Below are positions 43,830 to 56,423 of a stretch of 64,000 nucleotides of DNA, in pieces. How positions within the stretch are numbered: position 1 is the stretch's first letter; each line of letters begins with the position of its first letter. A model generated the notes under the pieces. It ran no database searches. It was given only the letters and a program-made list of their open reading frames with translations, and was not told the DNA's origin. Location of the stretch: NCBI GenBank assembly GCA_963835845.1, contig CAWIGT010000009.1, positions 65,808 to 129,807 of the forward strand, read 5' to 3'. The DNA comes from an uncultured Chloroflexia bacterium (GTDB taxonomy: Bacteria; Chloroflexota; Limnocylindria; Limnocylindrales; CSP1-4). The translations under genes and the position numbers were made by a program.

Positions 43830-46057
43830 CTACGGCCCTGGACTGAAGATGACGTTGTCGAAGGTCGCGGTCCCGAGCGCGCCGGGTTTATGCGAGCACT
43901 CGAAAATGCCGACGGTCGCCGCCGCCGGGATCGTCGGCAGGGACCTGGTAATAACCGCCGCCCATACAACGCCGTCCGGCGAGACGGAAGCGGTGAAGGT
44001 GTTACCCGAGCGGACGAGTCTCATCCAGGCGTTCGGATAGCTGAATGTGCCCGCACCCACTGATCCGCTGAAGCTGTACTGGACCTTGACGACGCCCTGG
44101 TACGAGGCGGCAATCAAGATGTAGTCCGAACCGGCGGCGATCGACGCCTTCCAGATCACGCCGGCCTTGTCGTTCGTGCTGCCGGCGTTGGTCTCGCCGG
44201 TGACGCGCGCGACGATCGTTCCATTGCCGCCGGTCGGTTGGTAGACGTAGCGGAACTGGTCGCTGGAGCCGAAGATGTCGGCGCCCGATCCCGCAACGGA
44301 GAACGTGCCGGCCGAGTAGCCGGCCGACCCGGCGGGCAGGGGCGAGCCCACGTCGGTGTCCAGCCAGGGCGACGGCAGGCCGCTACCCGACGTGGGCGCG
44401 GCCGTGAGCGCGGCCGTGGCCGTCGCCGTCGGCGCCGGGCTGGCGGTCGGCGCAGGGCTGGCGGTCGGGCCGGTCGTCGGCGTCGGTGCCGGCGTGGGGC
44501 TTGACGCAGCCACGGGACTCGGGCTCGGGGCGGTCGCTCCCCCGCCGGTCAGGACGAGGTCGTCGAAGGTGGCCTCGCCCGCGGCCGTCAAGGTGTGAGA
44601 CGTGACCGCCATGCCGGCCAGGACGGCGCCGCCGACGGCGAACGTAGCGGCCCCGCCCGAGATCGGCGTCCACGTGGTCCCGTCGGGAGAAGTAGAGGCC
44701 TCGACGGACGACCCGCTGCGATCCAGGCGCAGGTAGATCGGTGCGGCGCCCGCCGGCATGGCCATGTTCACAACCTGGGCGCCGAAGCTCGGGCGCTCCA
44801 TGACCCAGACGCCGGCCCGGGGCGTAGCCAGGACGGCGACGAACGCCGATGCCGGATCCACGCTCTGGCGGAACATCAGCCCCGCTCGCGCCCGGCTGTT
44901 GGTCCTGGTCTGGCTCACGACCCGGGCCGAAATCGTCGCGTCGCCGACGACAGGCTGGGAAACGAAGTGGAACTGGTCGGTGGTGCCGCCGATGTCGCGA
45001 CCCGACCCGGTTATCGTCCACAGGCCGCCGGCAGACGAGTCACTGCCGGCGATGGGCGGCGAGCCGATGTCGGCCCCGAACCAGGTCGGTCCGGATCCGC
45101 CCCAGGTCACCATCGATTGCGTGGCGAACGTGCCGACGGTAGTCACGGAGGCGGAGACGACGTCCGTGCCGGCAGCGGCATCTGAAAAGTGGAAGTCCAC
45201 CCGACCGGCCGCGTCGGTCACGCCGTTACCCGACAGTCCGGCGTTCGGTCCCGAAGTGACCGAGAACGCAATCGGGACTCCGGGCAGGGCGTTTCCACCG
45301 CCATCCACAAGCGCGGCGGTCTCGGTGACGGCGCCGCCGGTTGGCTCGGAAACGGCTCCCGGAGTCAGGCTGAGCGTTGCGGAGCTCGAACCGGGGGCGC
45401 CGATGGGACGCCACTGGATCGATTCGTTCTTGCTGCCGCCCGTGCCGCAGAAGCCCTGGTCGATGCCGCCCGTGTCGAGGACATGGGTGCTGTCGGCGAG
45501 CGTCGTCGCCACTCCCGCGACGGTTATCCTGACGGTCGGGGCGACAGTTATCGGTGTACAGACGTTGCCCGGATAGCCGCTGGTGTCGAAGTCGTCGGAG
45601 CTTGCCCTATCTCCTGGGGATTCTCCGTGAGAATGACGCTCCCGCCGGCCGGTACCGAGAACGACCCCCACAAGTCGAAGACCTTGCCGCCGGGAATGGA
45701 CGAGTGGACGTCGACGGTCACGTCAGAGACCGCGACGGCGCTTGGAGTCGGATTGTCCAGGCGTATGGCGCCCGCGTCGAAACAGCTCGGCAGCGAGCCG
45801 CACTGCGTCTGGCCGACCACCGGTCCGCCCAGGAATACGACGTTGGGCGAACCCTGCCAGGGCACGGGGAAGTTGGCCGGGTTGGGATTGTTGGTCTCCT
45901 TGTCTTCGGCATAGCCGACCGAGACCAGCAGGCCACCCGGTCCGGTTCCGGCCGCGAAGGCCGGCCCGGCGCCGGCCCCCACGGTCAGGAACGCCTGCGC
46001 GGTCAGGGCCAGGGCCAGCACCGAACGCGCCAGCAGGCTGGTAGAGGGGCGCTTCAT
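43830..46057 (-). CDS. Secreted multidomain protein: N-terminal unknown domain, Big_1-like Ig domain, 2 ConA/LamG-like modules (one frameshift)
   Basis: The start MKRPSTSLLARSVLALALTAQAFL (ATG 46057) lies in the frame of ORF 45548..46600. The frame switches at the C4/G4 run at about 45613-45620 into ORF 43830..45671 (..VILTENP|GDRASSDDFDTSG..). Ig-like segment: ALVDGGGNALPGVPIAFSVTSGPNAGLSGNGVTDAAGRVDF. Modules lie at about 44547-45089 and 43833-44381. Confidence 0.75.

Positions 46058-56423: not shown

Follow-up and report, generated by a model that had tools for sequence, protein, structure and literature searches.

The window considered here, a stretch of 64,000 nucleotides of contig CAWIGT010000009.1 from an uncultured Chloroflexia bacterium of soil (G+C content ~68%), contains three genes, g1, g2 and g3, whose products share a module of about 180 amino acids (aa) present in exactly ten copies. 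By sequence profile and predicted structure this module is a divergent branch of the Pfam family DUF1349 with a ConA-like beta-sandwich fold. The modules could be glycan-binding units that hold three different N-terminal heads on a polysaccharide, most probably a self-made polymer produced by the co-conserved synthase of the same gene cluster, and a GH5-like hydrolase (GH, glycoside hydrolase) could serve as the trimming enzyme; the probability of this reading is put at roughly 0.45. All genes of interest lie on the minus strand. The three module genes have the following composition.

43830..46057, minus strand: g1, 742 aa after repair of one frameshift; signal peptide, ~190-aa beta-rich head, Big_1 domain, internal module, Pro/Thr/Ala linker, C-terminal-type module
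46060..49559, minus strand: g2, ~1,166 aa after repair of two frameshifts; signal peptide, sGDH-type propeller, PKD domain, ~200-aa Ig-rich middle region, internal module, Ig-like domain, C-terminal-type module
51303..56423, minus strand: g3, intact open reading frame (ORF) of 1,706 aa; signal peptide, beta-propeller of the pyrroloquinoline quinone (PQQ)-like type, five internal modules, Ig-like domain, C-terminal-type module

The copies were located by a motif scan and MAFFT alignment and measure 174–208 aa (typically ~177 aa). Their distribution over the three genes (2 + 2 + 6), as proposed in an earlier note on this DNA, is confirmed, and no further copy was found elsewhere in the 64-kb window. 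The positions are given below together with the spacer that separates the last two modules of g3.

44550..45083, minus strand: g1 module 1, internal type (motif scan and alignment)
43845..44366, minus strand: g1 module 2, C-terminal subtype (alignment and subtype hidden Markov model, HMM)
46945..47568, minus strand: g2 module 1, internal type, carrying an insertion of ~30 aa that includes two Cys
46075..46599, minus strand: g2 module 2, C-terminal subtype (alignment and subtype HMM)
54477..55007, minus strand: g3 module 1, internal type, the most divergent copy, preceded by CPAGFVC
53886..54419, minus strand: g3 module 2, internal type, preceded by CPSSWSC
53310..53843, minus strand: g3 module 3, internal type, preceded by CPSGWTC
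52737..53267, minus strand: g3 module 4, internal type, preceded by CPTAWTC
52188..52718, minus strand: g3 module 5, internal type, the copy used for the AlphaFold2 model
51840..52187, minus strand: Ig-like spacer of g3 between module 5 and the C-terminal module, with weak Ig-like Pfam matches, kept in orthologs
51318..51839, minus strand: g3 module 6, C-terminal subtype, with the protein end ...FDNVSFTPGP before the stop codon and 69–74% identity to the last modules of g1 and g2

Because pairwise identity among the ten copies ranges from 23 to 74%, they are by this measure diverged paralogous modules and not assembly duplicates. The motifs previously listed as their shared signature are, in literal form, a consensus rather than a signature: WxDxD[IV]G, DQF[HNR][FY]V[YS]QP and [WN]AKAG[VI][MI] each occur in four of the ten copies, GxGxDI[WFY] and TSH in five. 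The relaxed forms [WF]xxxD[IV]G (10/10 copies), [TC]SH (8/10) and FD (9/10) are shared far more widely. Four internal copies of g3 are led by a cysteine pair, as had been noticed, at residues 469, 665, 857 and 1049; the pattern has to be widened from CPxxWxC to CPxx[WF]xC, since CPAGFVC, one of the pairs, carries F at the W position. Database relatives often show the consensus CPxxWxCADIG.

Two local features of g1 and g2 may be mentioned at this point. The insertion in module 1 of g2 (~30 aa, two Cys, …NGVSCTVNGCAAP…) is without counterpart in the other nine copies. In g1 the last module is preceded by a Pro/Thr/Ala/Ser-rich linker of ~60 aa (44367-44549, minus strand), at a place where orthologs carry an Ig-like domain. 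Linkers of this composition are typical sites of O-glycosylation in Actinobacteria, and the same cluster includes a PMT-like GT-C gene.

Assignment of the module to DUF1349 (PF07081; gathering score 32.4 bits) is based on whole-protein scores of 38.8 bits for g1, 53.4 bits for g2 and 89.6 bits for g3 (E 1e-9 to 2.5e-25), and nine of the ten single modules match the family at E <= 0.01 (best 8.7e-8). These E-values and single-module matches exclude chance, with module 5 of g3 taken alone scoring slightly under the gathering score (29.9 bits). GH43_C2 (PF17851) is a weak second family, which only one of the ten modules matches at E <= 0.01; module 5 of g3 reaches 20.4 bits (cut-off 22.7), and the whole-protein score of g3, 39.8 bits, is a sum of weak stretches, none of them significant singly. 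Pfam and NCBIfam contain no carbohydrate-binding module (CBM) model that matches the modules, and a PDB sequence-profile search with all ten returned only chance matches (antibody Fab, ribosomal protein S14).

The AlphaFold2 model of g3 module 5, built from a 63-sequence alignment, is an all-beta sandwich with a predicted local distance difference test (pLDDT) score of 97.6. In a Foldseek comparison with the PDB its top matches are the DUF1349 structures 3O12 and 3MEP (template modelling (TM) score 0.73–0.75, E 2e-8 to 2e-7, 12–17% identity), followed in order by C-terminal domains of GH43 beta-xylosidases, legume lectins and CBM66. The DUF1349/ConA-like fold suspected earlier from the sequence is thus borne out by Pfam and by Foldseek of the model, and the same Pfam and fold checks matched no well-characterised CBM or enzyme family. 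Membership in DUF1349 (COG3506, 'regulation of enolase protein 1') explains little, as the family has no known function; a literature search for DUF1349 or 'regulation of enolase protein' found no published function, ligand or assay. The nearest experimental precedent is the C-terminal module of a GH43_12 xylosidase, which binds xylan and was named CBM91 (PMC9534826). PF17851 presumably corresponds to CBM91. Among 349 internal-type modules from many phyla, residues D5, D36, K66, R72, Q95, R97, R121, D133, H162 and D173 are near-invariant.

The last domains of g1, g2 and g3 form a separate subtype: the three copies are 69–74% identical to one another and end in ...FDNVxFxPGP directly followed by the stop codon. 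Two subtype HMMs were used to classify 402 module instances, and all full-length instances of the C-terminal type (17–19, in 80 loci) end 3–4 residues before the stop codon. Five of five inspected database relatives are C-terminal fragments, four of which end in ...FDNVSxTxGP. The subtype differs from the internal type at near-invariant positions (R72K, R97N, P114N, D48N) and is richer in Lys and aromatic residues. Its net charge is about -0.9, compared with about -3.8 for the internal type; this difference is real, not diagnostic. Because the C-terminal type is locked in position and common to co-encoded proteins with different heads, its distribution suggests a common targeting or anchoring role.

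The module is very widespread. The module profile, searched against representatives of clusters at 50% identity, matches 25,116 clusters when E <= 1e-3 is required and 9,060 when the limit is E <= 1e-30; single proteins contain up to 11 matched stretches. Related loci were searched for with modules 3–5 of g3 in species-representative genomes, where at least 567 relatives were confirmed among the best 600 candidate stretches. Carriers belong to Chloroflexota, Actinomycetota, Dormibacterota, Acidobacteriota, Planctomycetota, Verrucomicrobiota, Bacillota and Bacteroidota. Since the homologs listed in the database were <= ~333 aa and many of them were fragments, architectures were taken from 79 fetched loci, and synteny was established by tblastn of the cluster proteins against the same loci.

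Three architectures recur in these loci: a PQQ head with 5–6 modules (~30 of the 79), the g1 head followed by 1–3 modules, and the g2 head, g2 middle region, module, optional Ig-like domain and C-terminal-type module (Chloroflexota, Acidimicrobiia, Streptosporangiaceae and Sinomonas). All three, with a processive GT2 synthase (GT, glycosyltransferase) and a GT-C transferase encoded nearby, are found in Chloroflexota, Actinomycetota and Dormibacterota, and the heads of g1, g2 and g3 occur together at nine loci of Chloroflexota and Actinomycetota. The gene for the PQQ-head protein is accompanied by a PMT_2-like gene at 17 loci, in most of them directly upstream, and by GT2 at 15 loci, including Dormibacterota (order Xrt, GT2, PMT, PQQ-head); GT2 homologs lie near module proteins at no fewer than 20 loci. 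In the nearest relatives (L001-L005 and L008) the order of the whole cluster is the same. As g3 aligns end to end with its ortholog in L005 (68% identity), each copy has an ortholog of its own, and the array is old and stable. The proteins of the window are ordinary orthologs of widespread soil-bacterial families rather than an unusual invention.

Elsewhere the module is fused to other partners: GSDH and fn3 (Paenibacillus tyrfis), GDPD and CBM96 (Cohnella), PA14 and a beta-helix, F5/8-type C and CHB_HEX_C, ThuA and 3-keto-disaccharide hydrolase, or a T9SS tail. Such promiscuous fusion, together with tandem arrangement, is typical of accessory binding modules. Repeated association with sugar-oxidising enzymes is seen in two of these cases, the module-module-fn3x4-GSDH protein of the Firmicute Paenibacillus tyrfis (L060, 9584-13246) and the protein of an Opitutaceae member (Verrucomicrobium; L043, 9911-12769) that combines the module with ThuA and 3-keto-disaccharide hydrolase.

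The heads of the three proteins agree with those described in the earlier note: a domain outside Pfam followed by Big_1 in g1, GSDH followed by PKD in g2 and PQQ_2 in g3. Signal peptides were judged by eye from the N-terminal sequences, and Sec-dependent secretion of all three proteins is probable. The head domains with Pfam matches are located as follows.

48483..49409, minus strand: g2 head, glucose/sorbosone dehydrogenase (sGDH-type, PQQ-dependent), six-bladed propeller; Pfam GSDH (PF07995) 163.9 bits, cut-off 25, profile positions 1-321 of 332
48240..48431, minus strand: PKD domain of g2; Pfam PKD_4 57 bits
55008..56423, minus strand: g3 head, signal peptide and PQQ-like beta-propeller; Pfam PQQ_2 62 bits
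45135..45329, minus strand: Big_1 Ig-like domain of g1; Pfam Big_1 33.6 bits, just under the cut-off of 34.9

The g2 head matches the sGDH of A. calcoaceticus (1C9U) at E 1e-28. In the phmmer alignment 'hh' falls on D-H144 and 'lrnp' on HRNP; the catalytic His and the RNP motif are kept. His144 is taken here to be the catalytic His of sGDH, and the Arg-Asn of RNP presumably belongs to the PQQ/substrate site. The head appears to be active as an sGDH-type PQQ sugar dehydrogenase; the window ORFs scanned include no pqq genes. The g3 head is a PQQ_2-type propeller and probably not a classical dehydrogenase: its PDB sequence matches are to repeats of PQQ-like propellers and to BamB, and quinoprotein ethanol dehydrogenase is matched in its first blades only. 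The head is not assigned to the quinoprotein alcohol dehydrogenases, the match to NCBIfam PQQ_enz_alc_DH (TIGR03075) being partial (profile positions 18-173 of 530) and far under the cut-off (89 bits against 480).

The head of g1 has no match in Pfam or NCBIfam. Its AlphaFold2 model is of moderate quality (pLDDT 77.5) and has no meaningful counterpart among PDB folds (best E 2.4e-3, TM <= 0.22). For the adjacent Big_1 domain, PF02369 is precomputed on many g1 homologs. The head itself (~190 aa, 45330-45950, minus strand) represents an unannotated domain family with the conserved stretches VGYA..., PNPWQGSPN, DAGAI, LWG, NFDTS, HVLDTGG and NES.QWR; its homologs P0185, P0190 and P0200 in other bacteria are stand-alone proteins of ~210–240 aa with a PEP-CTERM tail.

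In the direction of transcription the cluster consists of a PMT_2-like GT-C gene, g3, the GH5-like gene, a 403-nt gap, g2, g1, the gene of a small protein with a VPEAP tail, an exosortase-family gene, GT2, GT4 and a GH130 fusion. Housekeeping genes border it: uvrD/pcrA at one end, and ligA, gatCAB and dnaE at the opposite end. The three module genes are not strictly adjacent, contrary to the earlier description: the stop codon of g2 and the ATG of g1 are 2 nt apart, and the GH5-like gene with the 403-nt gap intervenes between g2 and g3. A scan for promoters and terminators at 41–58.5 kb gave nothing above shuffled expectation. The neighbours of the module genes are listed below.

56495..58252, minus strand: GT-C membrane glycosyltransferase, PMT_2-like, directly upstream of g3; Pfam PMT_2 26.0 bits, cut-off 26.1; at least 7 hydrophobic segments
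50047..51306, minus strand: GH5-like hydrolase, 419 aa, lipoprotein-type signal peptide; Pfam Cellulase (PF00150) 46.5 bits, cut-off 23.5; its ATG overlaps the g3 stop codon
43147..43641, minus strand: small secreted protein with a PEP-CTERM-like tail (VPEAP, hydrophobic helix, RVTRIR, read from the sequence)
41279..43027, minus strand: exosortase/archaeosortase-family membrane protein, 582 aa, extra domain at the C-terminus; Pfam Exosortase_EpsH 66.8 bits; 9 hydrophobic segments
39822..41282, minus strand: processive-type GT2 synthase; Pfam Glyco_trans_2_3 92 bits; DAED, TED, QRSRW; at least 5 hydrophobic segments, flanking transmembrane
38409..39584, minus strand: GT4 glycosyltransferase; Pfam Glycos_transf_1 68.9 bits
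36146..38446, minus strand: GH130 (beta-mannoside phosphorylase family) with a ~430-aa N-terminal region; Pfam Glyco_hydro_130 153 bits

Translational coupling of the GH5-like hydrolase to g3 is evident from the ATGA overlap at 51303-51306, as had been stated before. In this hydrolase the nucleophile-like motif is EEFG, and GEP stands in place of the NEP acid/base motif in all ten homologs aligned (motifs assigned by eye); a GH5-like lipoprotein with GEP may represent a distinct clan GH-A family or specificity. The PMT_2-like protein remains just under its Pfam cut-off, and its ortholog in L001 carries PF02366 and PF13231. The GT2 enzyme has the D,D,D,QxxRW signature, and its best NCBIfam matches, CelA and PgaC, are far under their cut-offs. 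The GH130 fusion also scores under the cut-offs of the NCBIfam beta-1,2-mannobiose phosphorylase models, and its ~430-aa N-terminal region has no family match in Pfam. A mannose-containing polymer is hinted at by three features taken together: GH130, which closes the cluster next to GT4; the PMT_2-like gene; and the L001 ortholog labelled as a GH5 'mannosidase'. Further away, upstream of uvrD/pcrA, two adjacent genes encode LppX/LprAFG-like lipoproteins (61628-62674 and 62790-63680, both minus strand), the first of them a weak match.

A 'sortase-like system' had been noted near the module genes. It is represented by the exosortase-family protein, which matches the NCBIfam signature TIGR04178 (40.7 bits, cut-off 23) and reaches no named Xrt subfamily; its likely substrate is the small VPEAP-tailed protein encoded directly upstream, not the three large proteins. 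The former ends in ...DECGHRVPEAP, a hydrophobic helix and RVTRIR, and no model of Pfam or NCBIfam, including the PEP-CTERM models, matches it. The tail is kept beside the exosortase in L002, in L005 (two tandem copies) and in L018 (Dormibacterota, as VPEAP). This protein and the exosortase may form an undescribed 'VPEAP-CTERM' sorting system. As substrates of an exosortase or sortase, g1, g2 and g3 were rejected: they end in ...FDNV(I/S)F(S/T)PGP and the stop codon, with no C-terminal transmembrane tail and, by eye, no LPXTG.

The intervals 43830..46057 and 46060..49559, given earlier as continuous genes, are not ORFs in this assembly; the frames had been joined without mention, across three frameshifts of 1 nt. 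According to the ORF listing and translation, g1 is split over ORFs 45548-46600 and 43830-45671 and g2 over ORFs 47895-49643 and 46060-48183, in each case in different frames. Three-frame reading places the breaks at the following sites.

45613..45622, minus strand: g1 frameshift site, AATCCCCAGG; a C4 run where C5 is expected from orthologs
48181..48245, minus strand: g2 stretch with two 1-nt frameshifts, within 48233-48245 and 48181-48196

When the g1 frames are joined at the C run, a protein of 742 aa results, in which SVILTENPPGDRASSDDFDTSGYPGNVCTP matches ...ENPPGDTASYDDFDTSGYPGNVCTP of L002 residue for residue across the junction. The L002 ortholog is intact at this point (ENPPGD), consistent with a C5 run, and the break in g1 is, by this comparison, a C4-for-C5 homopolymer error. 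In g2 the bracketed base of GCC(G)ACG, present in the window, is absent from L005, a short-read metagenome-assembled genome (MAG), and the g2 orthologs of L005 and L002 are single ORFs. Three other genes of the window, gatA (27.4–28.3 kb), ligA (32.3–33.3 kb) and an aminotransferase gene (26.4–27.4 kb), each change frame repeatedly; dnaE, uvrD and g3 are uninterrupted. The pattern indicates local indels introduced in assembly, of the kind that long reads produce at homopolymers, rather than gene decay. The closest relatives are 'MFD' MAGs, which come from the Microflora Danica study and are Nanopore-only (PMC12313526). Because gatA and ligA are also frameshifted and the orthologs are intact, the frameshifts of g1 and g2 are most likely assembly indels as well, and the repaired models are therefore treated as biological genes. 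For g1, the source gene call contains only the truncated 169-aa protein P0140, on a 421-kb contig.

In the reading preferred here, the DUF1349 unit would be a non-catalytic, CBM-like glycan-binding module. Arrays of 1–5 internal-type copies would provide multivalent binding, and the C-terminal subtype common to g1, g2 and g3 would serve as a shared anchor. Three heads, the sGDH-type dehydrogenase, the PQQ-like propeller and the beta-rich domain, would be held in this way on a polysaccharide, most likely the cell's own extracellular glycan. The co-conserved processive GT2 synthase would polymerise this glycan, the GT-C (PMT_2-like) and GT4 enzymes would add decorations, and the translationally coupled GH5-like lipoprotein would do the trimming. 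The surface apparatus for glycan binding or remodelling proposed in the earlier note receives real support from the conserved synteny with GT2 and GT-C in several phyla, although carbohydrate binding, the choice of glycan and anchoring by the C-terminal type are steps that we infer.

Several points weigh against the reading of a self-made surface glycan. Fusions of the module to clearly catabolic enzymes occur in other phyla, which fits environmental rather than self-made glycans. In the window, ~15 kb separate GT2 from PMT_2 and g3, and the exosortase genes lie in that interval. Glycan binding is extrapolated from fold neighbours at 10–17% identity, the literature search found no DUF1349 member with a demonstrated ligand or activity, and the near-invariant polar residues could equally mark an active or metal site. 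Signal peptides were assigned by eye rather than predicted with a tool, and two of the three module genes (g1 and g2) are frameshifted in this assembly. The last point is also the starting point of the most sceptical explanation, namely that the array is an assembly duplication or that g1 and g2 are pseudogenes and only g3 is functional. One frameshift in g1, two in g2 and the 169-aa fragment of g1 in the source annotation could be explained in this way. However, the module copies are only 23–74% identical, the same architectures are present at orthologous loci of independent assemblies, including the short-read L005 and L008, the shift in g1 is a change of homopolymer length, and frameshifts in the essential genes gatA and ligA indicate assembly indels. 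Duplication of one locus during assembly, which the earlier note had left as a possibility, is ruled out by copy divergence and the independent orthologous loci, and the explanation by artefact or decay as a whole is most improbable.

The catabolic partners suggest another use of the modules, in nutrient acquisition. As CBMs for environmental polysaccharides (plant, fungal or microbial necromass), they could act with the GH5-like and GH130 enzymes to bind, oxidise (sGDH / AA12-like) and cleave foreign glycans for uptake. Fusions in other phyla with GDPD and CBM96, PA14, F5/8-type C, ThuA and 3-keto-disaccharide hydrolase, and the GSDH of Paenibacillus, are in line with this use, as are the GH5-like and GH130 genes within the cluster and the nearest characterised relatives by fold, which belong to degradative enzymes (CBM91-type and CBM66; PMC9534826). 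Yet the conserved neighbours are biosynthetic (GT2, GT-C, GT4, exosortase) rather than regulators or sugar transporters, the cluster genes at 36–58 kb include none for sugar uptake of the ABC or MFS type, and the PQQ-like head bears no sign of a classical dehydrogenase; nutrient acquisition is regarded as rather unlikely. It is still less likely that the modules are not lectins at all, being instead catalytic (a ConA-like hydrolase, lyase or transglycosylase, similar to GH16 or 3-keto-disaccharide hydrolases) or protein-protein blocks of a surface layer, with the C-terminal type used for assembly. Near-invariance of D5, D36, R72, R97, R121 and D133 in the 349 internal-type modules could be explained by catalysis; other ConA-like families are enzymatic, one of which (PF06439, 3-keto-disaccharide hydrolase) is even fused to the module in L043, and the literature search found no ligand for any DUF1349 protein. 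Nevertheless, a row of 5–6 tandem copies, each with a 1:1 ortholog in other genomes, is what binding arrays typically look like and is unusual for catalytic domains, the most divergent modules of g3 (1 and 2) have lost several motifs (DI, SH) and are still retained, and the top fold matches are non-catalytic domains.

What is already known is that the module belongs to a Pfam family that is uncharacterised and very common in soil bacteria; new here are the conserved cluster, the strictly C-terminal subtype and the frameshift caveat. Nothing in these data overturns current ideas. DUF1349 as a whole is very large, with two structural-genomics structures and no ligand or activity on record; the present subfamily by itself accounts for ~25,000 protein clusters at 50% identity. 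The window offers a clean, representative case with ten copies, two subtypes, three heads and a cluster kept in abundant, poorly studied soil phyla. If the modules bind glycan, they would define a new CBM family and possibly a new way to retain enzymes on the envelope, and the numerous proteins of soil metagenomes described as 'PQQ-like propeller plus DUF1349' would gain a function. A bolder form of the surface-glycan reading is doubtful: that GT2, GT-C, the PQQ-propeller/DUF1349 array, the sGDH-DUF1349 and beta-rich-head-DUF1349 proteins and the GH5-like lipoprotein constitute an undescribed surface glycan apparatus of soil Chloroflexota, Actinomycetota and Dormibacterota, with the C-terminal type (FxPGP) as a new non-covalent envelope anchor comparable in role to SLH/LysM and the internal subtype as a new CBM family. 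The question is testable in cultured carriers, Sinomonas atrocyanea, Tengunoibacter tsumagoiensis and Paenibacillus tyrfis.

Comparison with known systems begins with the solved members of DUF1349, 3O12 from S. cerevisiae and 3MEP from Erwinia (ECA2234), which share with the modules a ConA-like beta-sandwich of ~180 residues (TM 0.74–0.75). These are single-domain proteins of ~180 residues, which we take to be cytosolic, whereas the modules of the window, 12–17% identical to them, are presumably extracellular, tandem, often led by a Cys pair and include a subtype found only at the C-terminus. GH43_C2, the second-best relative by sequence (weak) and by fold (TM 0.5–0.64), is likewise an accessory beta-sandwich on carbohydrate-active enzymes, but it occurs as a single copy packed on its catalytic domain, and the modules here form free tandem arrays. 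CBM66 (the levan-binding module of B. subtilis SacC, 4B1L; TM 0.65–0.70) and legume lectins (TM ~0.5) have the ConA-like jelly-roll fold of the modules and bind glycans on the concave sheet; they show no detectable sequence relationship to the modules (8–15% identity), and their ligand-binding residues are not comparable.

At the level of the cluster, the PEP-CTERM/exosortase systems (Haft's Xrt families) similarly place an exosortase beside glycosyltransferases of the exopolysaccharide (EPS) type, with a VPEAP-transmembrane-Arg-rich tail nearby. Unlike the substrates of those systems, g1, g2 and g3 end in ...FxPGP without a transmembrane tail. In Streptomyces, an apical glycan is assembled and modified by CslA (GT2), the oxidase GlxA, the hydrolase CslZ and LpmP (PMC11022532, PMC9040799). 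The accessory proteins of the Streptomyces system are not homologous to those of the window: GlxA is a copper radical oxidase, compared with an sGDH-type PQQ enzyme and a PQQ-like propeller here, and the system has a lytic polysaccharide monooxygenase and no DUF1349 arrays, the window having no such monooxygenase. The resemblance is one of analogy only, and it consists in a GT2 synthase encoded, in Streptomyces as in the window, beside an extracellular propeller-fold oxidoreductase and a glycoside hydrolase.

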